DNA of 64,000 bases from Burkholderiaceae bacterium (lineage in GTDB: Bacteria > Pseudomonadota > Gammaproteobacteria > Burkholderiales > Burkholderiaceae_C): the NCBI GenBank assembly GCA_022702125.1, contig JAKOND010000210.1:17322-81321 (forward strand), written 5' to 3'. The notes under the pieces are model-generated. The model saw only the letters and a program-made list of their open reading frames with translations, searched no databases and was not told the DNA's origin. A program made the position numbers and the translations under genes. How positions within the stretch are numbered: the first letter of the stretch is position 1; the number at the start of each line of letters is the position of its first letter. Shown one piece after another: positions 3,218 to 34,355 of the stretch.

Positions 3218-3238
3218 TCACCACACCCCGGGAGCCGC

Positions 3239-6439: not shown

Positions 6440-6569
6440 GCGTTGGCGCTCCAGACAAAAGCGGGGACGAAAGTCCCAAGGCCCTGCAGTCTCGCCACCT
6501 GGTGCCAGGCCCCTGGTAGGACGCAGCCGCTAACGCCTCGCCGCCCCTCGCTGGCAGCGGCGCCCCCCG

Positions 6570-7553
6570 TCAGTCGAGCTTGACCCCGGCGGCCTGGATG
6601 ATGGGGCCCCAGCGTTTCGCCTCGGCACGCGCCATGGCGCGGAACTGCTCGGGCGTGCCGGGCAGCGCCTCCATGCCGAAGCCCTGCAGGCGCTGGGCCA
6701 CGGCGGGCGTGGCCAGGGCCTTGTTGATCTCGGCATTGAGCTGGCCGACGATGGCCGGAGGCAGGCCGGCCGGGCCGAGCACGCCCTGGAAGGCGTAGAC
6801 CTCGGCGTCGGCCACGCCCAGTTCGGCCAGCGTGGGCACGTCGGGCAGGCTGGCGGCGCGGCGGCTGGAGCCGATGGCGAGCGCCCGCACCTTGCCCGAC
6901 TGGATCACCGGCAGGCCGGCCGCCAAGTCCAGGAACATGCACGGCACCTGCCCGCCCATCACATCCTGCAGCGCCGGGGCCGCGCCGCGGTAGGGGATGT
7001 GGGTGAGGAAGGTCCTGGTGCGGTTCTTGAACATCTCCATCGCCAGGTGGTGGGGCGAGCCGTTGCCGGGCGAGGCGTAGTTGAGCTTGCCGGGGTTGGC
7101 GCGGGCGTAGGCCAAAAATTGCGCGAAGTTGCGCGCCTCGAAGGCCGGATTGACCACCAAAGCAAGCGGAAAACGCGAGAGACCGCCGACGTAGCTGAAG
7201 TCTTTCTCGGGGCTGAAGGGCAGCTTGCTGAAGAGGTGTTCGTTGAAGGCCAGCAGGGCGTTGTCGGCCGACATGAGCGTGTAGCCGTCGGGTTTGGCGG
7301 TGGCGACCAGCTGCGCGCCGATGTTGGTGGAGGCGCCCGGGCGGTTGTCCACCACGATCTGCTGGCCCAGCGGCACGCGCAGCGCCTCGGCCATGGTGCG
7401 GGCCAGCACGTCGGTGCCTCCGCCGGCCGGGTACGGCACGATCCAGCGGATGGGCTGGCTGGGATAGCCGGGCGGCTGGGCGAAGGCGGCGGGCGTGGCC
7501 GCGGCGGCGCCCGCGAGGGCGATGGCGTTCTGGAGGAGCTGTCTGCGCTGCAT
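6570..7553 (-). CDS. Tripartite tricarboxylate transporter substrate-binding protein (Bug/TctC family)
   Basis: A signal peptide is followed by the hallmark YPSQPIRWIVPYPAGGGTDVLARTMAEAL. The length is 327 aa. Confidence 0.9.
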   Translation of the reverse strand: MQRRQLLQNAIALAGAAAATPAAFAQPPGYPSQPIRWIVPYPAGGGTDVLARTMAEALRVPLGQQIVVDNRPGASTNIGAQLVATAKPDGYTLMSADNALLAFNEHLFSKLPFSPEKDFSYVGGLSRFPLALVVNPAFEARNFAQFLAYARANPGKLNYASPGNGSPHHLAMEMFKNRTRTFLTHIPYRGAAPALQDVMGGQVPCMFLDLAAGLPVIQSGKVRALAIGSSRRAASLPDVPTLAELGVADAEVYAFQGVLGPAGLPPAIVGQLNAEINKALATPAVAQRLQGFGMEALPGTPEQFRAMARAEAKRWGPIIQAAGVKLD

Positions 7554-7598
7554 GGTGTTTGTCTCCTGGGTTGCAGGCGGGAGGGGAAGGCGCGCTGC

Positions 7599-16727: not shown

Positions 16728-19445
16728 TCAGCCCACCGATGCCTGCCGGCACAGCAGCTCGGTGAATTCCTCGGCCGGCAGCGGCCGGGAGCACAGATAC
16801 CCCTGGAAGCTGTCGCAGCCGCGCGCATGCAGAAAGGCGCGCTGCTCTTCCGTTTCCACGCCTTCGGCCAGCACCGACAGCCCCAGACTGTGGCCCATGG
16901 CGATGATGGCCGTGCAGATGGCCATGTCGTCGGTGTTCTGGGGCAGGTCGCGGATGAAGCTGCGGTCGATCTTGAGCACGTCGATGGGAAAGCGCTTGAG
17001 GTGGGCCAGCGACGAATAGCCGGTGCCGAAGTCGTCCACCGCCAGCCGCACGCCCAGCTCGCGCAGGCGCAGCAAGACCTGGCGCGCCTCTTCCGGACGC
17101 TCGGCCAGCGCGCCTTCGGTGATCTCCAGCTCCAGCTGGCGGGCCGGAAAGCCGCTGGCATGCAGCGCGCCGGCCAGGCCCGCGACCAGATCGCTCAGAT
17201 GGAACTGCCGGGGCGAGAGGTTGAGCGCCAGCGTGGCCGAGAGCAGGCCCGCATCGAGCCAGATCCGCCCCTGCCGGCAGACCTCGGCCGTCACCCAATC
17301 GCCCAGCGGGCCGATGAGCCCGGTGCTTTCGGCCACGGGAATGAAACGCGTCGGCGCGATGGGGCCCTCAACCGGATCGGTCCAGCGCACCAGCGCCTCG
17401 GCACCGACGATGCGGCCGCTGGCGATGTCCACCTGCGGCTGGTAGTGCATCTGCAGGTGGCCCTCGGCCATGGCCAGGCGCAGCCGGGCTTCGAGCGCCA
17501 GCCGCTCGCGCGCGGCGGCCGTCAGCCCCTCGTCGAAGAAGCACCAGGCGCCGCGGCCGTGCGCCTTGGCGCCGTGCACCGCCGCGTGCGCACCCTGCAG
17601 CAGCGCCTGCGCCGAGGTGCCGTGCGCAGGAAAGAGGGCAATGCCCACGCTCGCGCCGGCCACCACCTCGAAGCCCTCGGGCGAGCGCCAGGGGTCGGCG
17701 GCGGCGGCGATCATGGTCTGGGCGATGGTGCCGGCGTCCTCGGGCTGGCCCAGGCGGCGCGCCAGCACGCCGAGCTCGTCGCCGCCCAGCCGGCCCACCA
17801 GCACGTCGGCCCCCATGGCGGACTGGACCTGCCGGGCGATGTGCTGCAGCACCTGGTCGCCCACCCCGTGGCCGTAGCTGTCGTTCACGTCCTTGAAGCG
17901 GTCGAGGTTGAGCAGCAGCACGGCCATCTGCTCGCCGCCGGGCCGCGCGGCCTTCACGGCTTCGTCCAGGCACTCGGCGAAGCGGCTGCGGTTGACCAGG
18001 GTGGTGAGCGGGTCGTTGTGCGCGAGGAACTCCAGCCGCTGGTACTGGGCCTTTTCCTCGGTGATGTCGGTGAACACGCAGACGTAGTGCGTGGTCTCGC
18101 CCGCGGCATTGCGCACGGCCGAGAGCGACATGTGCTCGGGGAACACCTCGCCGTTCTTGCGCCGGTTCCAGATCTCGCCCTGCCAGTGGCCCGAGCGGCC
18201 CAGGCGCTCCCACATCGCGGCGTAGAAGGCGCTGTCGTGCCGGCCGGACTTGAAGATGCGCGGCGTCTGGCCCAGCAGCTCGTCCTCGGTGTAGCCCAGC
18301 AGCCGGGTGAAGGCGGAATTGACCCAGAGGATGCGGCTCTGCGCATCGGTCACGACCACGCCCTCGACGGTGTTGTCCACCACGGCGATGGCCAGGCGAT
18401 GGCGCTCCTCGTCGCGGCGCTGCTCGTCCTCGTCGGCCAGGGTGCCCAGCAGGCGGCCGGGCCGGCCCTGGGCGTCGAGCTGGCGCCGGCCATGGGCGCG
18501 GAACCAGCGGTATTCACCGTCGAAGCAGAGCAGCCGGATGCTTTCGGCGAACGGCTCGTCCGATGCCAGCGCATGGCGGGCCGCAGCCAGCAGGCGCCGG
18601 CGATCGGCCCGCAGCACCCGGGGCAGCAGGCGGAAGTCGTGCGCGAAGTCTGCGCCCTGGTAGCGCAGCAGCCGCTCCACGCCCCCGGCGAAATCGAGCC
18701 GGTGCCGGCGCAGGTCCCAGTCCCACACGCCGATGCCGCCGCCGTCGAGCGCCTGCTGCAGCCGCGCCTCGCTGCGCTCCAGGGCGCGGCGGGTGGTGCG
18801 GGCATCGGTCAGATCCTGCAGCACGCACAGCAGGTGCTCGGGCGTGTCGCCGGAGGCGGGGATCAGGCAGGTGGTGCCCAGCAGGGGCATGCCTGCGGCG
18901 TCGTCTTCGTCGTCATCGCAGCCCTCGTCGCCCGCTCCTTCGGAGCCCGGCACACGCCGCAGGCGGTACTGGGCCACCTCGTTCTCGGCCCCGGCCTCGC
19001 GCAGGCGTTCGGCCAGCCCCGCCTCGGCCTGCGGATCGACCGGCTGCACCAGCGCCTGGAAATCGAAGCCCTCCGGCACGGCGCCATCGCGGGGCAGGCC
19101 CAGCCACTGGCGCAGGCAGGCGTTCATCCACAGCAGGCGCCCGTCGAGCGCGATGCGCGCCATGCCGGCAGGCAGCTGCCGTGCCAGCTGGTCGCGCTCG
19201 CGCAGGGCGGCCTCGCGGCGGGCCTCGGCGCGCTGCAGCCGCAGCAGCAGCCAGCCCGCCAGCGCGGCGCCCAGGGCCACGCACACCAAGCCGCCGGTCC
19301 GGTGCAGGAACGCGAGCTGCTCCGCATCGGCCGTCCAGGCACGAAGCGCGGCATCGCCTGCCAGCACGATCACCGTGCCGGCAGCCAGATATAGGAAGAC
19401 TCCCTGCCATAGGGAGCCCTTCGGGCCAGGGCCCTTGCTGTCCAT
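16728..19445 (-). CDS. Membrane PAS/PAC sensor with GGDEF and EAL domains (c-di-GMP turnover)
   Basis: The internal ATG at 19445 gives MDSKGPGPKGSLWQGVFLYLAAG (TM). PAS repeats follow, then a GGDEF domain with RLGGDELGVL, then an EAL domain (GAEALVRW...DDFGTGYSSL...LKIDRSF). Confidence 0.9.
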   Translation of the reverse strand: MDSKGPGPKGSLWQGVFLYLAAGTVIVLAGDAALRAWTADAEQLAFLHRTGGLVCVALGAALAGWLLLRLQRAEARREAALRERDQLARQLPAGMARIALDGRLLWMNACLRQWLGLPRDGAVPEGFDFQALVQPVDPQAEAGLAERLREAGAENEVAQYRLRRVPGSEGAGDEGCDDDEDDAAGMPLLGTTCLIPASGDTPEHLLCVLQDLTDARTTRRALERSEARLQQALDGGGIGVWDWDLRRHRLDFAGGVERLLRYQGADFAHDFRLLPRVLRADRRRLLAAARHALASDEPFAESIRLLCFDGEYRWFRAHGRRQLDAQGRPGRLLGTLADEDEQRRDEERHRLAIAVVDNTVEGVVVTDAQSRILWVNSAFTRLLGYTEDELLGQTPRIFKSGRHDSAFYAAMWERLGRSGHWQGEIWNRRKNGEVFPEHMSLSAVRNAAGETTHYVCVFTDITEEKAQYQRLEFLAHNDPLTTLVNRSRFAECLDEAVKAARPGGEQMAVLLLNLDRFKDVNDSYGHGVGDQVLQHIARQVQSAMGADVLVGRLGGDELGVLARRLGQPEDAGTIAQTMIAAAADPWRSPEGFEVVAGASVGIALFPAHGTSAQALLQGAHAAVHGAKAHGRGAWCFFDEGLTAAARERLALEARLRLAMAEGHLQMHYQPQVDIASGRIVGAEALVRWTDPVEGPIAPTRFIPVAESTGLIGPLGDWVTAEVCRQGRIWLDAGLLSATLALNLSPRQFHLSDLVAGLAGALHASGFPARQLELEITEGALAERPEEARQVLLRLRELGVRLAVDDFGTGYSSLAHLKRFPIDVLKIDRSFIRDLPQNTDDMAICTAIIAMGHSLGLSVLAEGVETEEQRAFLHARGCDSFQGYLCSRPLPAEEFTELLCRQASVG

Positions 19446-19514
19446 CGGTTTCCTCGCTGCGTGGACCAGGCTGCGCGGCACACCGCTCTGCGGTGCTGCG
19501 ACAATCGCCCGGCT

Positions 19515-20363
19515 ATGACCCAAGCCTACATTCTCACCCTGTCCTGCCCCGATCGACTGGGGCTGGTGCATGCCGTGTCCGGTTTTTTGCTGGAACAGGA
19601 CGGCAACATCGAAGAGGCCGCGCAATACAACGACCACGACACCGGCCTGTTCTTCATGCGTCTGCAGTTCGCCTGCGCCACGCATGACCAGGCCACGCTG
19701 CGTGAACGCCTGGCAGCCTTCGCCGCGCCGCACCAGATGCGCTGGCACCTGCACGCGGCCAGCGAGCCGGTGCGCACCGTCATCATGGTCAGCCGCGAAG
19801 GCCACTGCCTGAACGACCTGCTGTTCCGCTGGAAGTCGGGCCTGCTGCCGGTCCACATCGCGGCCATCATCAGCAACCACCGCGACTTCTACCAGCTGGC
19901 GGCCAGCTACAACGTGCCCTTCCACCACATCCCGGTCACCAGGGACAACAAGGCCCAGGCCGAGGCGCGGCAGTTCGAGATCATCGAGCAGGAAGGCGCC
20001 GAGCTGGTGGTGCTGGCGCGCTACATGCAGGTGCTGTCGGACGACATGTGCCGCAAGCTCGAAGGCCGTGCCATCAACATCCACCACAGCTTCCTGCCCA
20101 GCTTCAAGGGCGCCAAGCCCTACTACCAGGCCCACGACCGCGGTGTGAAGCTGATCGGCGCCACGGCCCACTACGTGACGGCCGACCTCGACGAAGGCCC
20201 GATCATCGAGCAGGACGTGGCCCGCGCCGACCACACCGACACGGTGGAAGACCTCACGGCCCGCGGCCGCGACACCGAGAGCCAGGTGCTGGCCCGCGCC
20301 GTCAAGTGGCACACCGAGCGCCGCGTGCTGCTCAACGGCCACAAGACCGTCGTCTTCCGCTGA
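19515..20363 (+). CDS. purU: Formyltetrahydrofolate deformylase
   Basis: MTQAYILTLSCPDRLGLVHAVSGFLLE is the ACT domain. INIHHSFLPSFKGAKPYYQAHDRGVKLIGATAHYVT..LDEGPIIEQDV is the formyltransferase core. Confidence 0.95.
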   Translation: MTQAYILTLSCPDRLGLVHAVSGFLLEQDGNIEEAAQYNDHDTGLFFMRLQFACATHDQATLRERLAAFAAPHQMRWHLHAASEPVRTVIMVSREGHCLNDLLFRWKSGLLPVHIAAIISNHRDFYQLAASYNVPFHHIPVTRDNKAQAEARQFEIIEQEGAELVVLARYMQVLSDDMCRKLEGRAINIHHSFLPSFKGAKPYYQAHDRGVKLIGATAHYVTADLDEGPIIEQDVARADHTDTVEDLTARGRDTESQVLARAVKWHTERRVLLNGHKTVVFR

Positions 20364-20373
20364 AGCCCCCGCC

Positions 20374-21321
20374 ATGGCCACCGGCAGCGGCACCCCGAAG
20401 GACGCCTTTTCCACACGCGGCCAGGACGGCGCCGCCGCCAACTGGGCCAGCGGGGCGCGGCGCATCCCGCCCATCCAGTGCCTGGTCACCTTCGAAGCAC
20501 TGGCCCGGCTGCGCAGCGTGACGCAGTCGGCCGAGGAGCTGTGCGTGACGCCCAGCGCGGTGAGCCATCGCGTCAAGCAGCTCGAACAGATCCTGGGCAC
20601 GCGGCTCTTCGGGCGGGCGGATTTCTCCCTCACCACCGAAGGCAGCGCCTACCTGGCCCAGGTGCGCGAAGGCCTGAGCGCGCTGCAGCGCTTTCCGGGC
20701 AGCGACGCCACGCCGGGCAAGCGCCGGCTGAAATTGGCCGTCACGCCCACGTTCGCGCGGGCCATCCTGATCCCGCGGCTGCGGCAGTTCACCGAGGTCT
20801 ATCCCGAGATCGACCTGGCGATGCAGGTGTCCATCCCGCTGCTGGACGTGGTGGCCGAGGACGCCGACCTGGTCGTGCGCTTCGGCCCCGGCCACTACGC
20901 CGACATGGAGCATGTGGAGATCGCGCGCGACATGGTGACGCCGCTGGCCTCGCCCGCCTTCCTGCGCGAGCACGGCCCCTTCGATCGGCCAGAGGACCTG
21001 GAAGGCATCCCGCTGCTGCGCAGCCCGCTGGAGCCCTGGCGCACCTGGTTCGCCGCCTGCGGCCTGGACTGGCCTGCGCCCAGCGAGGGCTCGCAGTTCA
21101 ACGACATCGGCCTGATGTGCGATGCCGCCGCCGCCGGCATGGGCGTGGCGCTGGTGCGCCTGAAGCTGGGCGCGCCCTGGCTGGACCAGGGCACGCTGGT
21201 GCGCCTCTTCGACATCCAGGCGCCCAGCCCGCATGCGCACTACCTGTGCTGGCGCACCGGCACCATGGACCGCTGGGAATGCGCGGCCTTCGCCGAATGG
21301 CTGCAGCGGGCGATGAACTGA
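20374..21321 (+). CDS. LysR-family transcriptional regulator (GcvA-like)
   Basis: The HTH is LVTFEALARLRSVTQSAEELCVTPSAVSHRVKQLEQILGTRLFGR. It follows an N-terminal extension of about 30 aa. Confidence 0.85.
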   Translation: MATGSGTPKDAFSTRGQDGAAANWASGARRIPPIQCLVTFEALARLRSVTQSAEELCVTPSAVSHRVKQLEQILGTRLFGRADFSLTTEGSAYLAQVREGLSALQRFPGSDATPGKRRLKLAVTPTFARAILIPRLRQFTEVYPEIDLAMQVSIPLLDVVAEDADLVVRFGPGHYADMEHVEIARDMVTPLASPAFLREHGPFDRPEDLEGIPLLRSPLEPWRTWFAACGLDWPAPSEGSQFNDIGLMCDAAAAGMGVALVRLKLGAPWLDQGTLVRLFDIQAPSPHAHYLCWRTGTMDRWECAAFAEWLQRAMN

Positions 21322-21416
21322 CCGCGCCACGGCCTCGCTCCCCGCAGGCCGCTGCCGCCACCGGCAGCCCCTGCAGCCATTTCCGCCGTCAGCGCTGACC
21401 CCGCCTGCGCCAGCCT

Positions 21417-21431
21417 CTATTGAATCAATAG
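21417..21431. promoter_or_regulatory. Perfect 15-bp palindrome 28 nt upstream of the helicase start; candidate operator
   Basis: CTATTGA-A-TCAATAG is an AT-rich island in GC-rich DNA. Confidence 0.4.
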
Positions 21432-21458
21432 CGGCGCACCTCCAACCCTCACCACACC

Positions 21459-23462
21459 ATGGCCCAGCCCCCCCACGACGCCCCTACCGCAGCCGCCGCC
21501 TTCAAGAAGCGCTACCCCACGCTGGAGCAGAACGCCGTGCTCAACGCCACGGCGCGCACGGTGCTCATCAGCGCCCTGGCGGGCACGGGCAAGACCACCA
21601 CGCTGGCGATCAAGGCCGCCGATCTGGTGCAGACCCGGGGCGCGCGCCGCGTGCTGATGCTGGCCTATTCCGACGCGGGCCTCGCCGCCATCCACGACCG
21701 GCTGGCGCGCTTCATGCCCTCCGACGCGCGCGAAGTGCAGATCATGACGGTGGACCAGCTCTGCGCCGGCCTGCTGGAAGCGCAGGGCCTGCCCGTGCAG
21801 CGCCTGACCGAGCCCCTGGAGCGCAATCTGTTGATCCGCCAGGCCCATGCCGCGCTGCAGCAGCAGGGCGACGCGCCGCCCGAGGCGGCGGACTTCCTGG
21901 CGCGCGAACTCGACGTGCAGGCCTTCACCGACTTCGAGGCCCTGGCCAAGCAGCGCCTGCTGCAGCGCGACATCGCCCGCGAGGGCCTCAGCGCCGCCGC
22001 CTACTGCCGCGAGCAGGCGCTGGACTACGGCCTCTACCTGCTGCTGCGCCAGTACGAGCGCCTGCGCCGGGGCCCCGACGACGAGCCGCTCTTCTACGCC
22101 CCGGGCGACTGCACCTACGAGATCGCCCGGCAGCTCTGGGAGCTGGACTTCGGCGACGCCTACGCCCCGCTGCAGGGCCGCTACGACGCGGTGCTGTTCG
22201 ACGAGCTGCAGGATCTGGACGAGGCCGCCATGCTGGTGCTGCGCCACCTGGTGGCCGGCGGCAACGGCGTGTTCGTGGGCGCGGGCGACTTCAACCAGCA
22301 CATCCTGCCCGGCGCCTTCTCCGTCTTCGGCGACGGGCTGGAGCGCATCCGCCAGCAGCTGCCCGAGCCGCCCGAGGTGCTGACGCTCAACACCACCTAC
22401 CGCTTCGGCCCGGCCATCTGCGACGGGCTGAACCCGCTCTTCGGCGTGGACTTCGCCGCGCACTACGCCACCAAGCCGGCGCGCTTCGAGCGGCTTGCGT
22501 ACGAAAGCGACGAAGACTGCGCCCGGCAGCTGCTGGCCATCCACCAGGCCGTGCGGCGCGAGCCGCCCGCCGCGAACGGTGCCGCGCCCTGCCTGAACGT
22601 GGTGCTGCGCTCGCCCGAGGATTCGGTGCTGCTGGAATGGCGCTTCGCCCACGAAGGCGTGCACTACGCCTGCAAGGGCCTCAAGCGCTTCTACCAGCGC
22701 CGCGAGATCGCGCTGGTGCTGGCCCTCTTCTGGGCCCTGCCGGGCTGCGGCAGCCAGGTGCGGCTCACCCAGGGCATTCTCAGCAGCGCCATCGAAGGCC
22801 TGCTGCGCTACGTGCGCCGCGCCAGCCGGCCCGATGCCGACCGGCTGGCCAACGGCCTCTTCGACCTGCAGGCGCTGGCGCAGACCTCCGCCGCCGAGGT
22901 GGACACCCGCGCCGTGGCCGCCGAGCTGCTGGCCCAGCAGGAACGCATGCGCGGCTTCCTGCTGCGCGCCAGCTTCGACCCGAACGCGCCCGTGGCTTCG
23001 GCCGCCTGCGAGGCCTGGCTGGCCCTGCCGCCCGAGGCCTGCGCCGACGCCGGCCGGCTCTGCCGCCACCCGCTGCTGCACCGCTTCTTCGCGGAGGCGC
23101 CCATCAGCCCCGAAGAACTGCGCCAGTGCCTGGACAGCCTGCAGGCGCTCTCGCGCATCTGCGCGGGCCTGAGCGTGGATGAATTCCTCGGCCAGCTCGC
23201 GCTCATGGTGCAGTCCAGCATCCGCCAGCACCGCCAGAACGAAGCGCCCAGCCTGCAGCTGCTGACCGTGGAGCGCTGCAAGGGCCACGAATACGAGCAC
23301 GTCGCCGTGCCCCTGGTCGAGTGCGGGCGCTTTCCACGCGCCGCCGCCCCGCAGGAGGCCTACCGCGAACGCAACATGCTCTACGTGGCCCTCACCCGCT
23401 CCACCCGCCGCCTGTGGCTGCTGGAAGGCCGCGAGCGGCCGGTGAGCCCGGGGCCGGTGTGA
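21459..23462 (+). CDS. Divergent superfamily-1 (UvrD-like) DNA helicase
   Basis: Walker A is LAGTGKTT and motif II is FDELQD. TYRFG, C-terminal ERCKGHEYEHVAVPL and MLYVALTRSTRRLWL (motif VI) are also present. It lacks the canonical UvrD/Rep signatures (GSGKT, TFTNKAA). The length is 667 aa. Confidence 0.85.
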   Translation: MAQPPHDAPTAAAAFKKRYPTLEQNAVLNATARTVLISALAGTGKTTTLAIKAADLVQTRGARRVLMLAYSDAGLAAIHDRLARFMPSDAREVQIMTVDQLCAGLLEAQGLPVQRLTEPLERNLLIRQAHAALQQQGDAPPEAADFLARELDVQAFTDFEALAKQRLLQRDIAREGLSAAAYCREQALDYGLYLLLRQYERLRRGPDDEPLFYAPGDCTYEIARQLWELDFGDAYAPLQGRYDAVLFDELQDLDEAAMLVLRHLVAGGNGVFVGAGDFNQHILPGAFSVFGDGLERIRQQLPEPPEVLTLNTTYRFGPAICDGLNPLFGVDFAAHYATKPARFERLAYESDEDCARQLLAIHQAVRREPPAANGAAPCLNVVLRSPEDSVLLEWRFAHEGVHYACKGLKRFYQRREIALVLALFWALPGCGSQVRLTQGILSSAIEGLLRYVRRASRPDADRLANGLFDLQALAQTSAAEVDTRAVAAELLAQQERMRGFLLRASFDPNAPVASAACEAWLALPPEACADAGRLCRHPLLHRFFAEAPISPEELRQCLDSLQALSRICAGLSVDEFLGQLALMVQSSIRQHRQNEAPSLQLLTVERCKGHEYEHVAVPLVECGRFPRAAAPQEAYRERNMLYVALTRSTRRLWLLEGRERPVSPGPV

Positions 23463-23519
23463 GCGCCCGACGCACTCACGAAAAAACAGGCTGCAGCCCG
23501 CCATCCGCCTGGGCATATC

Positions 23520-23536
23520 GCTCCTTTATCCATAGC
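23520..23536. repeat. Short intergenic element related to GCTAT-N7-ATAGC (copy 3, degenerate left arm)
   Basis: GCTCCtttatccATAGC shares 13/17 positions with copy 2. Confidence 0.4.
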
Positions 23537-23661
23537 AAATACGAGCCGCAACCCTGATGCGGACCTGATGCCGCCGGGCTGCGCGCACGATGCCGCCCCT
23601 TCACGCGGCGCTGAAAGAAAACTCACGCACCGGCGCGCGCCCATCCTCTACAGTGGCGGGC

Positions 23662-25185
23662 ATGAGCGCTGCCGTATCCCTTCCCCCCGCTTCCGCCCCT
23701 GAATCCGCGCCCAGCGCCGCCGAACGCGCCGCCCGGCAGGCCCAGGTGGTGCAGGCCCTCGCGGCCCACCTACCCGCGCACATGCTGCTCTGGCACGCGG
23801 AAGACACCACGCCCTACGAATGCGACGGCCTCACCGCCTACCGCCAGCGCCCGCTGGTGGTCTGCCTGCCCGAGACCGAGGCGCAAGTGCAGGCCGTGCT
23901 GCGCACCTGCCATGCGCTGCAGGTGCCGGTGGTGGCGCGCGGCGCGGGCACGGGCCTCTCGGGCGGTGCCATGCCGCATGCGCTGGGCGTCACGCTGTCG
24001 CTGGCGCGCTTCAACCGCATCCTCTCCGTCGATCCGGTGAGCCGCACGGCCCGCGTGCAGTGCGGCGTGCGCAACCTCGCCATCAGCGAGGCCGCCGCGC
24101 CCTGGCAGCTCTACTACGCGCCCGATCCGTCCAGCCAGATCGCCTGCACCATCGGCGGCAACATCGCCGAGAACTCGGGCGGCGTGCACTGCCTGAAGTA
24201 CGGCCTGACCGTGCACAACGTGCTGCGCGTGCGCGGCTTCACCGTGGAAGGCGAGCCGGTGGAATTCGGCAGCGAGGCGCTCGATGCCCCCGGCTACGAC
24301 CTGCTGGCCGCCGTGATCGGCAGCGAAGGCATGCTGGCCGTGACCACCGAGGCCACGGTGCGCCTCATCCCCAAGCCCCAGCTGGCGCGCTGCATCATGG
24401 CCAGCTTCGACGACGTGCGCAAAGCCGGCGATGCGGTGGCCGCCGTCATCGCGGCCGGCATTATCCCGGCCGGGCTGGAGATGATGGACAAGCCCATGAC
24501 CGCCGCCGTGGAAGACTTCGTCAAGGCCGGCTACGACCTCACGGCCGAAGCCATCCTGCTGTGCGAGAGCGACGGCACGCCCGAAGAGGTGGAGGAAGAG
24601 ATCGGCCGCATGAGCGAGGTGCTGCGCGCGGCCGGCGCCACCGCCATCACCGTGAGCGAGAACGAGGCCGAGCGCCTGCGCTTCTGGAGCGGCCGCAAGA
24701 ACGCCTTCCCGGCAAGCGGCCGCATCAGCCCCGACTACATGTGCCTGGATTCCACCATCCCGCGCAAGCGCCTGGCCGACATCCTCCTGGCCATCGCCGA
24801 GATGGAGAAGAAATACCGCCTGCGCTGCTGCAACGTCTTCCACGCCGGCGACGGCAACCTGCACCCGCTGGTGCTGTTCGACGCCAACGACCCCGAGGAG
24901 CTGCACCGCTGCGAGCTCTTCGGCGCCGACATCCTGGAAACCAGCGTGGCCATGGGCGGCACCGTCTCGGGCGAGCATGGCGTCGGCGTGGAGAAGCTCA
25001 ACAGCATGTGCACCCAGTTCACCACCGAGGAGAACGCGCAGATGTTCGCCCTCAAGGCCGCGTTCGACCCGGCCGGCCTGCTCAACCCGGGCAAGGTCAT
25101 CCCGACGCTGAACCGCTGCGCGGAGTACGGAAAGATGCTGGTGCGCGGCGGGCAGATCGCGCATCCGGATCTGCCGCGGTTCTGA
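23662..25185 (+). CDS. glcD: Glycolate oxidase FAD-linked subunit GlcD-like
   Basis: Similarity to E. coli GlcD, as I recall it, is strong end to end: PYECDGLTAYRQRPL, ARGAGTGLSGGA, YYAPDPSSQIACTIGGNIAENSGGVHCLKYGLTVHN, FHAGDGNLHPLVLFD, LNPGKVIPTLNRCAEYG. Confidence 0.9.
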   Translation: MSAAVSLPPASAPESAPSAAERAARQAQVVQALAAHLPAHMLLWHAEDTTPYECDGLTAYRQRPLVVCLPETEAQVQAVLRTCHALQVPVVARGAGTGLSGGAMPHALGVTLSLARFNRILSVDPVSRTARVQCGVRNLAISEAAAPWQLYYAPDPSSQIACTIGGNIAENSGGVHCLKYGLTVHNVLRVRGFTVEGEPVEFGSEALDAPGYDLLAAVIGSEGMLAVTTEATVRLIPKPQLARCIMASFDDVRKAGDAVAAVIAAGIIPAGLEMMDKPMTAAVEDFVKAGYDLTAEAILLCESDGTPEEVEEEIGRMSEVLRAAGATAITVSENEAERLRFWSGRKNAFPASGRISPDYMCLDSTIPRKRLADILLAIAEMEKKYRLRCCNVFHAGDGNLHPLVLFDANDPEELHRCELFGADILETSVAMGGTVSGEHGVGVEKLNSMCTQFTTEENAQMFALKAAFDPAGLLNPGKVIPTLNRCAEYGKMLVRGGQIAHPDLPRF

Positions 25186-25235
25186 CCCGTGCCTGCGGGG
25201 ACGAGCGCGGCGGCCATCCTTGTGCGCCCTGGCAG

Positions 25236-25442
25236 CTACAGGTAGCGCTGCAGCCGGGTGTCCGCCAGCCGCACCCAGTCGGGCAGCTCATGGGTCCAGA
25301 CCGAAGTGCTGTAGCTCAGGCGAAGGGCCTGGATCAGCCGAACCATCTGCTGCTCGCTGACCGGGCCGTGGCGCGTGCCATGCTCTTCGTAGAACCAGCC
25401 GACGGACGGCTGCGGGACCGGCCCGCCCGGAGCGCTGTTCAT
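25236..25442 (-). CDS. 68-aa GYF_2 (DUF4339)-like mini-protein
   Basis: GWFYEEHGTRHGPVSEQQMVRLIQALRLSYSTSVWTHELPDWVRLADT fits the W-Y-x-GP...vW...W pattern. Its ATG overlaps the upstream stop (ATGA). Confidence 0.65.
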   Translation of the reverse strand: MNSAPGGPVPQPSVGWFYEEHGTRHGPVSEQQMVRLIQALRLSYSTSVWTHELPDWVRLADTRLQRYL

Positions 25443-26074
25443 GCGTGCTCCTGCGCAAAGGCGGACTGTCCCGCGGAAGCCGCTACGCCCGGCACGCCCG
25501 GCTCCCCCCACAGGCGGTCGAGCGTCAGCCCCACGAGCGCAGAGACGTCGTCCGCGTTGAGATGCGCCTCCAGCACGACGTTCAGCTCGCTGAAAGGCAG
25601 CCTGCGCCTCTGGCTTGCGAATTCGATCTCGATGAACGAATCGACATGGACGGCGGCTCCATCCAGGATGCGCCACCGGGAATGCTCCGTCGCTTTCCTG
25701 AAATCCTCCAGACGGGCCAGCGCCCGGCCGCGCAGCCCCGCCAGCTCCGACCGCATCCCGTCCGTCACCGGCGGCTGCCGGACCTCCAGGGCCCGCAGCC
25801 GCGACAGCTGCATGCGCGTCTGCTTCTCGAAATAGGCCCGGGCATATCGATACTCGCACCGATACTCCACGACGGTCTGGCCTTGAGGGTCCGTGAAGGA
25901 GCGCCACCGCGTCGCCGAACAGGCCTGGCGTGCATCCAGGGCAACGCCAATGGTCGAGTAGGGCATGGCCGGCCAGACGGACTCTCTCACCAGCCGGACG
26001 TCGCCGTTGGCGCCTCCCGCCGCCCAGAACGCGATACCCAGCGCTACGGGCCAGCACAAGACACGCTTCTTCAT
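25439..26074 (-). CDS. Secreted hypothetical protein (211 aa)
   Basis: ATG 26074 has AAGGGGG upstream. The signal peptide is MKKRVLCWPVALGIAFWAAGGANG, and the mature part has two Cys. I recognise no family. Rare-codon use is atypical for this window. Confidence 0.7.
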   Translation of the reverse strand: MKKRVLCWPVALGIAFWAAGGANGDVRLVRESVWPAMPYSTIGVALDARQACSATRWRSFTDPQGQTVVEYRCEYRYARAYFEKQTRMQLSRLRALEVRQPPVTDGMRSELAGLRGRALARLEDFRKATEHSRWRILDGAAVHVDSFIEIEFASQRRRLPFSELNVVLEAHLNADDVSALVGLTLDRLWGEPGVPGVAASAGQSAFAQEHA

Positions 26075-26116
26075 CGGGACCCCCTTACTGTTGTGGTGCT
26101 TGCCCTACCCCGGAGC

Positions 26117-26134
26117 AACGCAGCATGCAGCGTT
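26117..26134. promoter_or_regulatory. Near-perfect 18-bp palindrome in the AT-rich divergent region; candidate XRE operator
   Basis: AACGCAGCATGCAGCGTT is 16/18 self-complementary. A tandem CAAAAAT x2 (26137-26150) and a TATATA -10-like element follow. Confidence 0.35.
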
Positions 26135-26207
26135 ACCAAAAATCAAAAATCAACTTAACTATATACAAAGTTACGCCACCCCAGCGACCTCTCCATAGCG
26201 TAATGGT

Positions 26208-26642
26208 ATGGAAGTCAAGCATCTTTTTGCGGAGAGGTTACGCAGGGCCATGGAGGCGGCAGGCTACGACCCCAAGCCAGCCGTGCTGGAACGCGAGTTC
26301 AACACCCGCTACTGGGGCAAGCCGATGACGCTGCATGGCGTGCGCCGTTGGTTGCTGGGCGAGACCATGCCCACACACCGCAAGCTGGTGACGCTGGCCG
26401 AATGGCTGAAAGTGCCGGCCGAAGAACTGGCCTGGGGCGACACGGCCCACGCCGCCCCGCTGAGGGTGGCCGAGCGCCCGGCCGCCTGGGATACCGGCGC
26501 GCCCTACCAGGACCGCGAGCTGTTCGACATCTATCAGCGCCTGCCAGTGGCGCAGCGCCGCCTGGCGCGCGACGTCATCCTGGCCATCGCCCGCGCCCAC
26601 GAGGCCGACGAGGCGGACCGCGCCGGCCTGCCCCGCCGCTGA
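26208..26642 (+). CDS. XRE-family helix-turn-helix regulator
   Basis: FAERLRRAMEAAGYDPKPAVLEREFN...TLHGVRRWLLGETMPTHRKLVTLAEWLKVPAEELAWG is an HTH_XRE layout. A C-terminal domain of about 60 aa follows. It is divergent from the secreted-protein operon. Confidence 0.8.
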   Translation: MEVKHLFAERLRRAMEAAGYDPKPAVLEREFNTRYWGKPMTLHGVRRWLLGETMPTHRKLVTLAEWLKVPAEELAWGDTAHAAPLRVAERPAAWDTGAPYQDRELFDIYQRLPVAQRRLARDVILAIARAHEADEADRAGLPRR

Positions 26643-26682
26643 ACGGAAGCCCCCCCGGCGGAGCCGGCGCAGCCCAGCGGGG

Positions 26683-27996
26683 TCAACCGCCCAGCACCGC
26701 GCCCACCGCGTCCATCAGCTCCCGGCCGTGCGACAGCGCGAAGAGCACCAGCCCCACCAGCCCGCCCACCACCGTGCCGTTGATGCGGATGTACTGCAGG
26801 TCGCGGCCGATGTGCAGTTCGGCCAGGCGCGCCATCTCGCGTGCGTCCCAGCGCTCGACGGTGGCGCGGATGTGGTCGGCCACCGAACGCGACACGTCGG
26901 GTGCCCACTGGGCGGCCCAGAGTTCGAGCCGCACGTTCAGGCGCACGCGCAGCGCGGCATCGCCGGCCAGCGACATGCCCAGCCACTGGCCCATGGCGGC
27001 CACCTGGCGCGAGACCTCGGAATGCTCGTCGTTCAGGTCGCGGCGCAGCGCCTCGCGCACCCGGCCCCAGAGTTCCGCCACATAGGCGCCGAGCTTGGGG
27101 TCGTCCTGCAGATAGGCGCAGACCTCCTCGCCGCGCCGCGCCCAGTCGGGGTCGGTCTGCAGCCGGTCCACCAGGCGCTGCATGGCGGTGTCCAGCGTGT
27201 CGCGCAGCTGGTGGTGCGGGTCCTTGGCGACCTCTTCGAGCAGGCTCTCGATGGCGTGGGCGATGGCGCCCGCGCCCTTGGCGCCCAGCCAGTCGGTGGG
27301 CAGCACCTTTTCCTTCAGCGGATGCTCGCGCCGGATCCACTGCACCAGCGTGTCGGCGATGAAGGCGCGCGTCTCGGCCGACTGCAGCATGCCGCCCAGG
27401 CGCAGCAGCAGGTCGTCGAGCAGCGCCTGATGCCGCCCGCCCTGGGTGAGCGCGCCGAGGGCCGCGCCCATCGAGCGGCTGAGGTCGATGCGCCCGAGGA
27501 GCGCGCGCGCCGCCTGGCCCAGCAGTTCCTGGATCTTGGTGTCTTCCACCGTGTCGAGCGCCGCGGCAGCCAGGCGCGCCACCTGCCGGCCCAGCAGGCC
27601 GGCGTTGGCCGGCGCGGTGAGCCACTGCGCCAGCATGTCGGCCGGGTCGTGCCGGCGGATCATGCTGACCAGCGAGGGCGCGTCGAGGAATTCTCCGCGC
27701 ACGAACTCGGCCAGGTTGCCGCCGATGCGGTCCTTGTTGCGGGCGATGATGTCGGTGTGCCCGCCGACCCAGGGCAGCGGGATGCGGCGGAACAGCGCGG
27801 AGACGGCGAACCAGTCGGCCAGCGCGCCGACCAGGGCGGCCTCGGCCACGGCGCGAACGCAGTCCACGGCCAGGCCGCGCGGGAAGAGATAGGTGGCGGC
27901 GAACACCACCACCACCATCAGCAGCAGGCCGGTGGCCTGGCGCTTGGCGCGCTGCAGCAGCGCTTCTTGGTCCTGTCGGGGGGCTTGCAACGGCAT
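26683..27996 (-). CDS. DUF445 (YjiN-like) membrane protein
   Basis: ALVGALADWFAVSALFRRIPLPWVGGHTDIIARNKDRIGGNLAEFV is the DUF445 signature. N- and C-terminal TM helices are present. Confidence 0.85.
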   Translation of the reverse strand: MPLQAPRQDQEALLQRAKRQATGLLLMVVVVFAATYLFPRGLAVDCVRAVAEAALVGALADWFAVSALFRRIPLPWVGGHTDIIARNKDRIGGNLAEFVRGEFLDAPSLVSMIRRHDPADMLAQWLTAPANAGLLGRQVARLAAAALDTVEDTKIQELLGQAARALLGRIDLSRSMGAALGALTQGGRHQALLDDLLLRLGGMLQSAETRAFIADTLVQWIRREHPLKEKVLPTDWLGAKGAGAIAHAIESLLEEVAKDPHHQLRDTLDTAMQRLVDRLQTDPDWARRGEEVCAYLQDDPKLGAYVAELWGRVREALRRDLNDEHSEVSRQVAAMGQWLGMSLAGDAALRVRLNVRLELWAAQWAPDVSRSVADHIRATVERWDAREMARLAELHIGRDLQYIRINGTVVGGLVGLVLFALSHGRELMDAVGAVLGG

Positions 27997-28057
27997 GGCC
28001 CAAAGAATAGCCGCCGGGGCGGCGCCGCGCCAAGGCGCGGCCTCTTTCCCCGAAGGG

Positions 28058-29191
28058 TCAGCGGGGAAGGACCTGATCGAGCGCGGTGCGCAGGTGGCCC
28101 ACGGTGCGCTCTACGTTGTGCCACTTCTCCAGCCCGAAGAGGCCGATGCGGAAGGTGCGGAAATCCGCGCCCTCGCCGCACTGCAGCGGCACGCCGGCAG
28201 CGGTCTGCAGGCCCGCGGCGGCGAACTTGGAACCGTTCTGGATGCCCAGGTCGGTGGTGTAGCTCACCACCACGCCGGGCGCCTTGAAGCCTTCGGCCGC
28301 CACGCTGGGCAGGCCGCGCGATTCGAGCAGCTCGCGCACCTGGGCGCCCAGGGCGATCTGCTCGGCGCGCACCTTCTCGAAGCCGTAGTCGCGCGTCTCC
28401 AGCATCACGCCCTGCAGCTGCACAAGCGCATCGGTCGGCATGGTGGTGTGGTAGGCGTGCTGGCCCTTTTCGTAGCCTTCGGCGATCTGCATCCACTTCT
28501 TCAGGTCGCACGAGAAGCTGGAGCTTTGCGTGCCTTCGATGGCCTCGCGGGCGCGCTCGCTCAGCATCACCATGGCGCAGCAGGGCGAACCGCTCCAGCC
28601 CTTCTGCGGCGCGCTGATGAGCACGTCCACGCCGGTGGTGCGCATGTCCACCCACATGGCGCCAGAGGCCACGCAGTCCAGCACGAACAGCGCGCCCACC
28701 TCGTGCGCGGCGTCGGCCACGGTACGCAGGTAGTCGTCCGGCAGGATGATGCCGCTGGCGGTCTCCACGTGCGGCGCGAACACCACCTTGGGCCGCTCCG
28801 CGCGGATGGCGGCCGCCACCTCGTCGGCGGGGCACGGCGCCCACGGCGCCTGGGCGCCCTCGCCCTGCTGGCGGGCCTTGCACACCACCGCGCCGCCCCC
28901 CAGGCCGCCAGCGTCGAAGATCTGGCTCCAGCGGTAGCTGAACCAGCCGTTGCGCACGATCAGCACCTTCTCGCGGTTGGCGAACTGGCGCGCCACCGCT
29001 TCCATGCCGAAGGTGCCGCTGCCCGGCACCAGCACGGCCGTGTGGGCGCCGTACACCTGCTTGAGCGTGGCGAGGATGTCCTGCATCACGCCGGTGAAGC
29101 GGCGCGACATGTGGTTCAGGGCACGGTCGGTGTAGACCACCGAGAATTCGAGCAGACCGTCGGGGTCGATGTGGGACAGCAGTCCGGGCAT
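28058..29191 (-). CDS. Class V PLP-dependent aminotransferase (alanine-glyoxylate / serine-pyruvate type)
   Basis: VPGSGTFGMEAV...FVLDCVASGA...ISAPQKGWSG carries the PLP Lys. The length is 377 aa. Confidence 0.88.
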   Translation of the reverse strand: MPGLLSHIDPDGLLEFSVVYTDRALNHMSRRFTGVMQDILATLKQVYGAHTAVLVPGSGTFGMEAVARQFANREKVLIVRNGWFSYRWSQIFDAGGLGGGAVVCKARQQGEGAQAPWAPCPADEVAAAIRAERPKVVFAPHVETASGIILPDDYLRTVADAAHEVGALFVLDCVASGAMWVDMRTTGVDVLISAPQKGWSGSPCCAMVMLSERAREAIEGTQSSSFSCDLKKWMQIAEGYEKGQHAYHTTMPTDALVQLQGVMLETRDYGFEKVRAEQIALGAQVRELLESRGLPSVAAEGFKAPGVVVSYTTDLGIQNGSKFAAAGLQTAAGVPLQCGEGADFRTFRIGLFGLEKWHNVERTVGHLRTALDQVLPR

Positions 29192-29430
29192 GGGTTCTCT
29201 CCGAGACGTAGGGTTTCACGGCCCGGCGGCCGGCCGGGCATCGGGCCAGCTTAGCATGCAGGCCCCAGCCGCGCCCGGGCACCGAGCGCCGCAGCAGCGG
29301 CCCGCCAGCCCTGTGACGCCCCTGGCCGTTTACCCGATCTTTACCCCCGCGCAAAGGTTGGACTGCACCGCCTTGGCACACTCGTCCTGCCTTCCTTGCT
29401 TCGGCCACTCCCGGCCCTCCACTGACCGTC

Positions 29431-30642
29431 ATGTCCCTGCTCCGCCGCACACCGCCCCTCCTGCGCATCGTTCTCGCTCTCGCCGCCGTGACCGCCCTCG
29501 TTGTCGGGGCCAAGCTGCTGTTCTTCCCGGCCAAGGAGGCGCCCCGCTTCGCGACCGCCGCCGCCGTGCGCGGCGACATCGAGGATGCGGTGCTCGCCAC
29601 GGGCACGGTTCAGGCCTTCAAGCAGGTGAGCGTGGGCGCGCAGGTGTCGGGCCAAGTGAAATCGCTCAAGGTGCAGTTGGGCCAGCGCGTGAAGAAGGGC
29701 GAGCTCATCGCCGAGATCGACTCCACCACCCAGCAGAACACGGTGCGCAACGCCGAGGCCGCCCTGGAGAACGTGCGCGCCCAGCAGGCCTCGCAGCAGG
29801 CCTCGCTGATCGAGGCCGAACTCGCCTACAAGCGCCAGAAGCAGCTACTGGACGCCGACGCCGGCGCACGCGCCGACTTCGAGGCGGCCGAGGCCAAGCG
29901 CAACACCACGCGCGCCAGCATCGCGGCGCTGCAGGCGCAGATCAAGCAGGCCGAGATCACCGCCGACACCGCCAAGGTCAACCTGGGCTACACCAGGATC
30001 GTCTCGCCCATCGACGGCATCGTCGTGGCGCTGGTGGCGCAGGAAGGCCAGACGGTGAACTCCAACCAGACCACGCCGACCATCATCAAGGTCGCGCAGC
30101 TCGACACCGTGACGGTGAAGACGCAGATCTCCGAGGCCGACGTGATCAAGGTGCGGGCCGGCCTGCCCGTGTACTTCACCATCCTGGGCGACCCGGACAC
30201 GCGCTACACCGCCCAGCTGCGCACCATCGAGCCGGCGACCGATGCCATCCTGACGGAGAGCACCGCCTCGTCCTCCAACAACGCCACGTCCAGCTCCTCG
30301 ACCACGGCCATCTACTACAACGGCCTGTTCGACGTGCCCAACCCGGACAACCGGCTGCGCATCTCGATGACGGCACAGGTCTCCATCGTGCGGGCACAGG
30401 CCCGGGGCGCGGTGATCATTCCCGCATCGGCGCTGGGCCAGCGCTCGCGCGACGGCTACACCGTGCGCGTGCTGGACGCCCAGGGCCAGCCCCAGCCGCG
30501 CAAGATCCGCGTGGGCATCAACAACAACGTGAACGCCGAGGTCACCGAAGGCCTGGCCGAGGGCGAGCAGGTGGTGGTGGCCGAGTCCGCGGCCCCGGGC
30601 GGCGCGTCCGGCATGCGCCGCGGCCCGCCCATGCGCCTGTGA
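29431..30642 (+). CDS. macA: MacA-type periplasmic adaptor (HlyD/MFP family)
   Basis: An N-terminal anchor, a coiled-coil hairpin and barrel domains are present ([24 protein letters not shown]). It sits directly upstream of macB. Confidence 0.9.
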
Positions 30643-30652
30643 GGGGCGAGCG

Positions 30653-32653
<2,001 letters not shown>

Positions 32654-32729
32654 CGCCGACCCCGCCCCTCGCCCCCCTCGCACCGTCCCTCGCATCCCTC
32701 ACCGCACGCCCCTCCCGCAGCAGGCTCCC

Positions 32730-34355
32730 ATGACGACCCTTCCGACGCCCTCCTTCCCGCGACGCATCCGTTCGGCCACGGCCCTGGCGGCCGCCTGCGC
32801 GGCGCTGCTGGCCGGCTGCGCCGCGCCCGGCGCCGGCGACCTGTCCGCGCCCGGGGTGCGGGTGGCCTCCGCCTGGCGCGACGCCGGCGCGGGCGTGCGC
32901 CGCACCGCCGGCACCGGCCCCGCGCCGCTGACCACGCCCGCCGACCGGGCGCCCGACGTGCGCGCCCTGCCCGCCGCGGCGGTGGCGACGGACTGGTGGC
33001 GCGCCTTCGGCGACCCGGCGCTCGATACGCTGGTCGCCCGCGCCCAGCAGTACGACAACAACCTCGCGGCCACCGCCATCCGGGTGCGGCGCGCCCAGCT
33101 CAACGCCGGGCTGGCCGCGGTGCCGCTGACGCCGCAGTTCAGCGGCAGCGTGGGCGCCAGCGCCTCGCGGCGGCTCGACGGCGGCCCCAGCAGCCGCGCC
33201 AGCACCGCCAGCCTGGGCGCGAGCTACGAGGTGGACCTGTGGAACCGCCTGGGCAGCGCCCGCGACGCCGCGCGCTGGGAGGCGCTGGCCACCGTGCAGG
33301 ACCGCGAGGCCGCCGCCCAGGCCCTCGCCGGCACCACCGCCACGCTCTACTGGCAGGTCGGCTACTTCAACCAGCGCCTGGCGCTATCGGCGCAGAGCAT
33401 CGCCTACGCCGAGCGCACCCTGGCGCTGATCCAGACCCAGTACGACGCCGGCGCCGTCTCGGGCCTGGAGCTGGCCGAGTCGCGCCAGACGCTCGCCGCC
33501 CAGCGCGCCGCCCGCACCACGCTGGAGCAGCAGCGGGTGCAGGCGCTCAATGCGCTGGCGCTGCTGTTCGACGGCCGGCTCAGCGTCGGCGGCCAGCCGG
33601 TGGGCAGCATGGCGATGGAAGGCGCGGCCGTCGCCCCGGTCGCGGCCGACGTGTTCGGCGGCCCGGGCACGGGCGCCGCTTCGACGACCGCCGCCTCCCC
33701 TGCCATCCCCTCTGCCACGGCCGACAACCCGTTCCTCGACTGGCGCGAGCCGACGGTGCTGCCCGCCGGCGCGCTGCCCCCGGTCGAGGCCGGCCTGCCC
33801 GCCGACCTGATCGCCCGCCGTCCCGACGTGCGCGCCGCCGAGCTGCGGCTGCGCGAATACCTGCGCAACGTGGACTCCACCCGCGCCGCCTTCTACCCCG
33901 CGCTGGTGCTGACCGGCACGCTCGGCAACTCCAGCGCCGCGCTCGCCAACCTGCTGCAGAACCCGATCGGCACGCTGGGCGCGAGCCTGAGCCTGCCCTT
34001 CCTGCAGGCCGGGCAGCGCACGCTGCAGCTGCGGGTGTCCGAATCGGTCTACCAGGAGGCGGTGGTCGCCTTCCGCCAGACGGTCTACCAGGCCTTCTCC
34101 GACGTGGACAACGCGCTCTCGGCCCGCCAGCAGTACGAGGCCCAGGCCGCGCTGCTCGACGCCTCGCTGGCGGAGGCCCGCCGCGCCGAGCGGCTCTACG
34201 AGACGCGCTACCGCGCCGGGTCGGTGCCGCTCAAGTCCTGGCTCGACGCGCAGGAGAAGCGCCGCAGCGCCGAGATCGCGGTGGCGGACAACCGCTACAA
34301 CCGGCTGGTCAACCACGCCACGCTGTTCCAGTCGCTGGGCGGGGCGACCTCCTGA
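32730..34355 (+). CDS. Efflux outer-membrane factor lipoprotein (NodT family)
   Basis: The lipobox is LLAGC. WWRAFGDPALDTLV, YEVDLWNRL and the C-terminal LFQSLGGA are typical OMF motifs. Confidence 0.9.
   Translation: MTTLPTPSFPRRIRSATALAAACAALLAGCAAPGAGDLSAPGVRVASAWRDAGAGVRRTAGTGPAPLTTPADRAPDVRALPAAAVATDWWRAFGDPALDTLVARAQQYDNNLAATAIRVRRAQLNAGLAAVPLTPQFSGSVGASASRRLDGGPSSRASTASLGASYEVDLWNRLGSARDAARWEALATVQDREAAAQALAGTTATLYWQVGYFNQRLALSAQSIAYAERTLALIQTQYDAGAVSGLELAESRQTLAAQRAARTTLEQQRVQALNALALLFDGRLSVGGQPVGSMAMEGAAVAPVAADVFGGPGTGAASTTAASPAIPSATADNPFLDWREPTVLPAGALPPVEAGLPADLIARRPDVRAAELRLREYLRNVDSTRAAFYPALVLTGTLGNSSAALANLLQNPIGTLGASLSLPFLQAGQRTLQLRVSESVYQEAVVAFRQTVYQAFSDVDNALSARQQYEAQAALLDASLAEARRAERLYETRYRAGSVPLKSWLDAQEKRRSAEIAVADNRYNRLVNHATLFQSLGGATS

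Follow-up and report, generated by a model that had tools for sequence, protein, structure and literature searches.

A probable reduced allele of a hypervariable cassette in the glcD/XRE slot of a Paracidovorax wautersii-like bacterium

Bacterial chromosomes contain hotspots of variable and defence cassettes, in which fixed core flanks enclose many alternative contents, exchange takes place by homologous recombination in these flanks, and no integrase is present. The slot described here, between glcD and an XRE-like regulator gene, shares these features, but it is small (0-5 genes), it holds mostly envelope proteins rather than recognised defence systems, and one of its crossovers lies inside the flanking regulator gene. 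We analysed 64,000 nucleotides (nt) of a Burkholderiaceae bacterium (contig JAKOND010000210.1), referred to below as the window, in which this slot is followed by genes for a DUF445 protein and an aminotransferase. The closest described relatives of its genes are the XRE/Cro-cI repressors with divergent promoters (e.g. DicA, and lambda cI transcribed from PRM), the DUF4339/GYF_2 membrane proteins of about 187 amino acids (aa) found in beta- and gamma-proteobacteria, and an unnamed lipoprotein family exemplified by a 344-aa protein of Paracidovorax wautersii DSM 27981. An earlier reading of the DNA letters (the sequence-only reading) had described the region as a three-gene islet of foreign origin, in which an XRE regulator controls a coupled pair of genes for an orphan secreted protein and a small GYF_2 adaptor.

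Our analysis makes it likely instead that the region carries an allele of a hypervariable cassette, the most reduced one known, and that this cassette occupies a fixed glcD/XRE slot in P. wautersii-like bacteria. The three open reading frames (ORFs) are as originally reported: a GYF_2-only protein of 68 aa (25236-25442, minus strand), an exported protein of 211 aa (25439-26074, minus strand) and an XRE-like regulator of 144 aa (26208-26642, plus strand). The reported ATGA stop/start overlap between the 211-aa and 68-aa genes is also present (4 bp, 25439-25442), and an AT-rich divergent control region of 133 bp (26075-26207, GC 0.50) separates the pair from the XRE gene.

We compared the window with the nearest public locus, that of P. 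wautersii DSM 27981 (L015). Sliding nt identity was 96-100% over 26500-29099 and 96% over glcD, and fell to 42-88% over 25190-~26495, i.e. the diverged, apparently recombinant segment runs from just past glcD to the 3' third of the XRE gene, where the right breakpoint lies at 26495-26507. A sharply bounded, diverged segment therefore does exist, almost at the coordinates first proposed for it. The amino acid identities to DSM 27981 were 98.3% for glcD, 98.2% for DUF445, 97.9% for the aminotransferase, 82.9% for XRE, about 50-60% for the GYF domain, and 59% and 37% for the N-terminal and C-terminal blocks of the lipoprotein. The XRE gene is itself a mosaic, with codons ~100-144 being 98.5% identical at the nt level to DSM 27981 and codons 1-96 showing 77% aa identity. 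Synonymous divergence (dS) was 0.5-1.2 in the diverged segment compared with 0.06-0.15 in the flanks; this high dS argues for an old imported allele rather than locally accelerated protein evolution. There was no tRNA gene within 18000-34000 and no integrase ORF, and the flanking repeats were only short and at chance level; the segment thus lacks the integrase, the tRNA or att repeats and the strong compositional shift that mark an integrated mobile element or genomic island. On these comparisons the window allele is an anciently diverged haplotype. It was most likely exchanged through homologous recombination between flanking sequences, with one crossover just past glcD and another inside the XRE gene, and not through integration of an element.

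Different genera share the backbone order glcD-(slot)-XRE-(DUF445)-aminotransferase, and the slot has a range of alternative contents. It is empty (about 400 bp) in G193, giving glcD-XRE-aminotransferase; it holds DUF445 in G007 and G195 (glcD-DUF445-XRE-aminotransferase) and only a lipoprotein gene in G339 (glcD-lipoprotein-XRE), with variants of these arrangements in G023 and G054. The metagenomic locus L025 carries a 258-aa lipoprotein and a full-length GYF_2 membrane protein (GYF-TM), whose genes overlap by ATGA. In DSM 27981 the slot contains the 344-aa lipoprotein, GYF-TM, a DUF445 paralogue and a DUF697-like gene, which weakly matches PDC-S30 (E=6e-5). A metagenome-assembled genome (MAG), GCA_913774135.1 (L041), has the same contents except that the DUF445 paralogue is split into ORFs of 166 aa and 274 aa and is probably a pseudogene. 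This paralogue (6790-8058 in L015, 4794-6091 in L041) is 49-50% identical to the backbone copy. L024 has a 347-aa lipoprotein, a DUF445 remnant and a DUF697-like gene, and the metagenomic locus L033 has a 339-aa lipoprotein, GYF-TM, DUF445, a PDC-M09A-like gene and a 148-aa gene. In L038 and L039 the slot is filled by a WYL regulator, a 98-aa gene, PDC-M09B and PDC-M09A, which together form a PADLOC candidate defence system; PADLOC matches were confined to such other alleles (PDC-M09A/B, WYL). The L038 example (3088-7588 of ENA ERZ27247383, contig k141_219773) encodes WYL/WCX, the 98-aa protein, PDC-M09B (519 aa) and PDC-M09A (331 aa), between flanks that match those of the window (helicase, glcD, XRE, DUF445, aminotransferase, MFP-MacB-OEP). 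The window itself has the 211-aa lipoprotein-family gene and a 68-aa GYF stub.

The surroundings of the slot also vary. A UvrD-like SF1 helicase gene (window 21459-23462) lies between LysR and glcD in both the window and L041, and L038 likewise has it upstream of its glcD; L033 (5174-7737) is without it and its glcD adjoins LysR, so that this is another accessory insertion beside glcD. Over 29192-29430, upstream of the aminotransferase gene, the identity of the window to DSM 27981 again falls sharply. The next gene is Beta_elim_lyase in L041, which is of the DSM 27981 type, and belongs to an MFP-MacB-OEP efflux operon in the window (MFP from 29431) and in L038, so that this is a second structural polymorphism.

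The sequence-only reading offers a rival explanation for the diverged segment, namely a self-contained, horizontally acquired three-gene cassette, whose own XRE protein represses the coupled pair through a palindromic 18-mer. The sharp boundaries and divergence of the segment would fit such a cassette, as would the ATGA overlap shared with L025 and the sporadic distribution of the lipoprotein, which is found in 5/401 genomes of the taxonomic family and in none of the 40 nearest relatives. However, XRE orthologues with 66-76% identity adjoin glcD and a class-V aminotransferase gene in other genera, and the glcD-XRE-aminotransferase synteny extends over at least six genera, with or without a cassette. 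By this criterion the XRE gene is a backbone gene and not part of the insert; only its 5' two-thirds have diverged, and the three-gene islet as proposed does not stand. The coupling is absent from L015 and L033, the palindrome is not conserved and the GYF protein is a truncated membrane protein (both detailed below), and there is neither integrase, tRNA nor repeats. We therefore regard the three-gene cassette, which synteny largely refutes, as very unlikely. The proposal that the secreted-protein module is accessory survives without the XRE gene, as the lipoprotein is sporadic and the relatives of both it and the GYF protein occur in genomic-island-like contexts. The coupling is shared with one other allele but is no general trait of the module.

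Codon usage gave limited support to a foreign origin. The G+C content at third codon positions (GC3) was 0.83 in the 211-aa gene, 0.90 in the GYF gene and 0.87 in the XRE gene, compared with 0.92-0.95 in five neighbouring genes. Against about 2,600 gene-like ORFs of the genome (70.6% GC), and with rare codons taken as the set named in the sequence-only reading, the 211-aa gene was at the 21st percentile for GC3 and the 95th for rare-codon fraction, the GYF gene at the 46th and 67th, and the XRE gene at the 34th and 83rd. Only the 211-aa gene is thus moderately unusual, a point in favour of the three-gene cassette; the atypicality that had been noted by eye is mild overall, and GC3 is unremarkable in all three. 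The TTA codon in the XRE gene is conserved in all eight aligned orthologous loci and is therefore no indicator of foreign origin.

The 211-aa protein had been considered unassignable to any family. This is true of the curated libraries, since it had no match in Pfam, NCBIfam, PADLOC or PHROGs, and a word-indexed homologue search returned only the protein itself. When 1.8 billion cluster representatives were searched exhaustively with phmmer, however, 93 relatives emerged, 15 with E-values under 1e-10 (best to 2e-42), which make up an unnamed lipoprotein family (representatives P0003-P0094). The relatives are mostly 240-370 aa long. They begin with a lipoprotein signal peptide, in which the L-x-G-C lipobox is nearly invariant, and have conserved N-terminal and C-terminal blocks around a coiled-coil segment of very variable length. 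In an alignment (A1) of 32 sequences, the invariant residues are R49, C52, W57, D62, V69, C73 and W134 in the numbering of the window copy, which retains all of them. The alignment places the end of the lipobox at G20-C21, where the window copy alone among the 32 sequences has glycine in place of the lipobox cysteine (Gly21, codon GGC, in AAGG(21)ANGD). The window copy therefore lacks the cysteine of an Lgt/LspA substrate and is not itself a lipoprotein in this sense; it does share the conserved core of the family, with the invariant residues and with a helical hairpin set between two half-domains.

The A1 alignment gave an AlphaFold2 (AF2) model of the 211-aa protein with a predicted local distance difference test score (pLDDT) of 87.5, compared with 43 for the single-sequence model. 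In the AF2 model both conserved blocks form one alpha/beta domain, into which helices 78-99 and 105-124 are inserted as a hairpin. A Foldseek search of the PDB with this model gave no match below E=0.02, and all template modelling (TM) scores were below 0.3; in BFVD an uncharacterised Aeromonas phage D6 protein was the single, weak match (E=4.8e-4, TM 0.29). The family profile matched only generic coiled coils among the PDB sequences, a tblastn search of 50,697 phage records with the homologue P0008 found no homologue, and one of a plasmid collection with P0011 found one weak Shewanella match. From these alignments and the model, the 211-aa protein is among the shortest members of the family, its long coiled-coil insert cut down to a short hairpin. 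It thus shares with the 344-aa protein of DSM 27981 the half-domains, the cysteine pair, the tryptophan residues and a helical hairpin, but differs in the shortness of the hairpin and in the replacement of the lipobox cysteine. Short relatives with an intact lipobox also exist (P0006, 258 aa, and P0032, 202 aa). The signal peptide would still direct export, and cleavage by signal peptidase I after AAGGA would release a soluble periplasmic form.

The 68-aa protein matches Pfam GYF_2 (PF14237, DUF4339) over residues 16-61 with E=1.1e-10 and 41.5 bits against a cutoff of 25.8, in agreement with its first assignment; NCBIfam, PADLOC and PHROGs gave no match. Its positional homologues are 188 aa (DSM 27981), 188 aa (L033) and 206 aa (L025) long, and in each the N-terminal GYF_2 domain is followed by C-terminal hydrophobic stretches that we read as membrane segments. 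DUF4339 proteins of ~187 aa (typically 184-190 aa) occur widely among beta- and gamma-proteobacteria, with identities of 50-57%, and the domain of the window protein, which is homologous to their N-terminal domain, is 43-49% identical to the positional orthologues by BLASTP and 59.6% identical in a tblastn segment of 47 aa. The window gene ends directly after the domain, 50 bp from the glcD stop codon, and lacks about 120 residues, including the C-terminal membrane domain of the full-length family. Judged by these lengths, a ~187-aa DUF4339/GYF_2 membrane protein has been truncated to the 68 aa seen here; the suggestion that it is a dedicated mini-adaptor was not borne out. Compared with DSM 27981, the ratio of nonsynonymous to synonymous divergence (dN/dS) of the GYF domain was 0.70, from only 50 codons, so that the remnant is probably under relaxed constraint.

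These reductions raise a second rival explanation, i.e. that a larger cassette has been mostly deleted and that the lipoprotein gene and the GYF stub are non-functional and drifting towards loss. In favour of this, the lipobox cysteine of the other aligned sequences is glycine in the window copy, about 120 GYF residues are gone, the GYF dN/dS is high, and the DUF445 paralogue and the DUF697-like and PDC-M09A-like genes of sister alleles are absent; the split DUF445 paralogue of L041 shows that decay does occur at the slot. On the other hand, both ORFs are intact, the 211-aa protein has every invariant residue of its family and a confident AF2 model, and short forms with an intact lipobox (P0006 and P0032) exist elsewhere. 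Against DSM 27981, the lipoprotein blocks had dN/dS values of 0.35-0.42 and the N-terminal part of XRE one of 0.29, which indicates purifying selection on both, for the lipoprotein along most of its divergence. Nearly unchanged copies of the allele also occur in five independent metagenome assemblies. The 1,457-bp segment is shared by L047-L049 and L051, each with 2 differences from the window and with Gly21 and the truncated GYF gene retained, and L050, an 870-bp contig, has an XRE identical to that of the window. This recurrence shows that the allele is real and circulating rather than an assembly artefact. Taking both sides together, we think a decaying remnant rather unlikely, and favour a reduced allele, which has kept every invariant core residue of the lipoprotein family and has lost the lipidated cysteine and the membrane part of the GYF_2 protein.

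The genes that surround the lipoprotein and GYF-TM homologues elsewhere raise the question of a role in defence. By our reading of ORF translations, lipoprotein homologues adjoin integrase, excisionase-like and restriction-modification genes, and the Pfam tables of called genes place an H-NS gene and a NACHT gene close to them. In Pseudomonas aeruginosa (L052 1686-5555, GCA_033871675.1) the genes close to GYF-TM homologues are WYL, GTPase-DUF697 and YfjT; in Variovorax they are RadC, HTH_3 and DUF2628. WYL regulators, MMR_HSR1 GTPase plus DUF697 proteins and YfjT recur around GYF-TM and lipoprotein homologues in distant genomes (L052; L018 6177-7289), and these recurring neighbours hint at a common island 'accessory module'. 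The idea that the upstream neighbours of GYF-TM elsewhere are members of the lipoprotein family was rejected: the Variovorax one resembles the family in its signal peptide only (hhalign probability 58%), and YfjT showed no similarity. Among the titles and abstracts listed for GYF_2/DUF4339 and PDC-M09, none concerned a bacterial function.

A third rival explanation would make the lipoprotein, the GYF_2 membrane protein and DUF445/DUF697 an envelope anti-phage or exclusion module, and the slot a defence hotspot. The contents of some slots are suggestive: that of L038 holds WYL with PDC-M09A/B, a PDC-M09A-like gene lies behind the cassette in L033, and the DUF697-like gene has its weak PDC-S30 match. 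No other gene of the locus evolves as fast as the lipoprotein gene (aa identity 36-46% compared with 61-93% for its neighbours), the associations described above link its homologues to integrase, restriction-modification and NACHT genes and GYF-TM to WYL, GTPase-DUF697 and YfjT, and its one BFVD fold match is to a phage protein. However, this is guilt by association. The lipoprotein and the GYF protein have no PADLOC or PHROG match, the phage records contained no homologue, the PDC systems are themselves only candidates, and the window allele is without most of the partners. A defence module is therefore, in our view, unlikely. Bolder still, and very unlikely, is the idea that a disulfide-bonded lipoprotein with a variable coiled-coil stalk forms, with DUF4339 and DUF445/DUF697 membrane proteins, a new envelope phage-defence or exclusion system, maintained as ancient recombining alleles in a defence hotspot with an XRE-like switch, of which the window would hold a minimal, non-lipidated variant.

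The regulator resembles XRE/Cro-type proteins at a level below curated thresholds. It has 884 homologues, which NCBI names 'XRE family transcriptional regulator'; its matches to HTH_31 (E=0.021, 15.6 bits, cutoff 27) and to NCBIfam DicA (E=0.0097, 15.7 bits, cutoff 101) are below threshold; two PHROG regulator/repressor families gave 2.4e-4 and 3.4e-4, and the family profile matched only 3op9 in the PDB (E=0.04). Residues ~100-135 of the protein form an additional conserved domain at its C terminus. Like DicA and cI it is a small helix-turn-helix-like protein encoded divergently across an AT-rich spacer, but it differs from them in its sub-threshold matches, its extra domain and its position as a chromosomal backbone gene rather than a prophage gene, and its operator is putative. 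The possibility that its DNA-binding domain co-varies with a cassette operator was rejected, as residues ~26-55 are nearly invariant among orthologues. A divergent gene of canonical HTH_3 type recurs beside distant lipoprotein homologues (P0011-type loci and several Paraburkholderia loci), which supports that part of the sequence-only reading. The genome of the window encodes a second XRE-like paralogue, 47% identical, on an 8.5-kb contig (L014; G000 contig C12 1648-2031).

The descriptions first given of the divergent spacer proved accurate. Positions 26113-26245 have a GC of 0.451 and tie with 62118-62250 as the most AT-rich 133 bp of the window, which is 72.5% GC overall. The 18-mer AACGCAGCATGCAGCGTT, 16/18 self-complementary, is present at 26117-26134, as are two copies of CAAAAAT (26137 and 26144) and the only TATATA in the window (26160). 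The palindrome is allele-specific, its left half being unconserved in DSM 27981 and six other loci, which counts against its proposed role as the operator. Other elements are conserved, as seen in an alignment (A5) of eight orthologous loci. A -10-like hexamer, TAGCGT, lies 6 nt before the XRE ATG (26196-26201, plus strand) and is found as TA(G/C)(C/T/G)GT at the same distance in 8/8 loci, and no Shine-Dalgarno sequence is visible; this combination suggests that the XRE mRNA may be leaderless, like that of lambda cI. Also conserved upstream of XRE are the blocks ACGT[T/A/G]AC and (C/G)T(T/G)A(C/T)T. The plus-strand motif GTTACGC occurs only twice in the 64-kb window, 67 bp apart, at 26170-26176 and 26237-26243, and its second copy falls in XRE codons 10-12 and includes the rare TTA. 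The larger pattern TTTGC-N8-TTACG, which covers XRE codons 7-12 with their rare TTT and TTA, is invariant in the eight loci, which come from several genera, despite about 70% GC. Together with the hexamer, this points to constraint at the nt level, which could come from a leaderless mRNA or from an operator within the gene.

The conserved upstream elements fit a promoter of XRE's own and autoregulation, and we infer XRE control of the lipoprotein operon from adjacency alone. Under the reduced-allele reading, the XRE mRNA would have no leader or a poor one, and the protein would bind the AT-rich spacer, autoregulate and repress the divergent operon. The 211-aa product would be exported, cut by signal peptidase I and folded in the periplasm with a C52-C73 disulfide, giving a soluble rather than lipid-anchored version of the envelope protein; the diversity of the lipoprotein and its neighbours would fit interaction with phages or competitors. 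Several points weigh against this account. A simple consensus scan of the region detected no sigma-70 promoter and no terminator, and the upstream blocks are kept whatever the divergent content is (WYL cassette, DUF445 or a sigma-54 activator), so that they may serve the XRE promoter only and XRE may be a mere hotspot-flanking core gene. PADLOC-DB gave no match for the three window proteins or for two long lipoprotein homologues. Variation within the allele amounts to 2 single-nucleotide polymorphisms, which is too small for a selection test, and the allele could be decaying, given that it has lost the cysteine and the membrane part of GYF.

The analysis replaces an orphan secreted protein with its mini-adaptor by members of two recognisable but unstudied families, the unnamed lipoprotein family and the DUF4339 GYF_2 membrane proteins. 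The fold predicted with confidence for the lipoprotein family matches no PDB structure significantly in Foldseek (E <= 0.001). The analysis also reveals a small hotspot of recombination between glcD and XRE, where candidate defence genes are among the alternative contents. The window allele is in itself a reduced variant of modest interest; the full cassette is carried by a culture-collection strain, P. wautersii DSM 27981, which makes the system open to testing at the bench.

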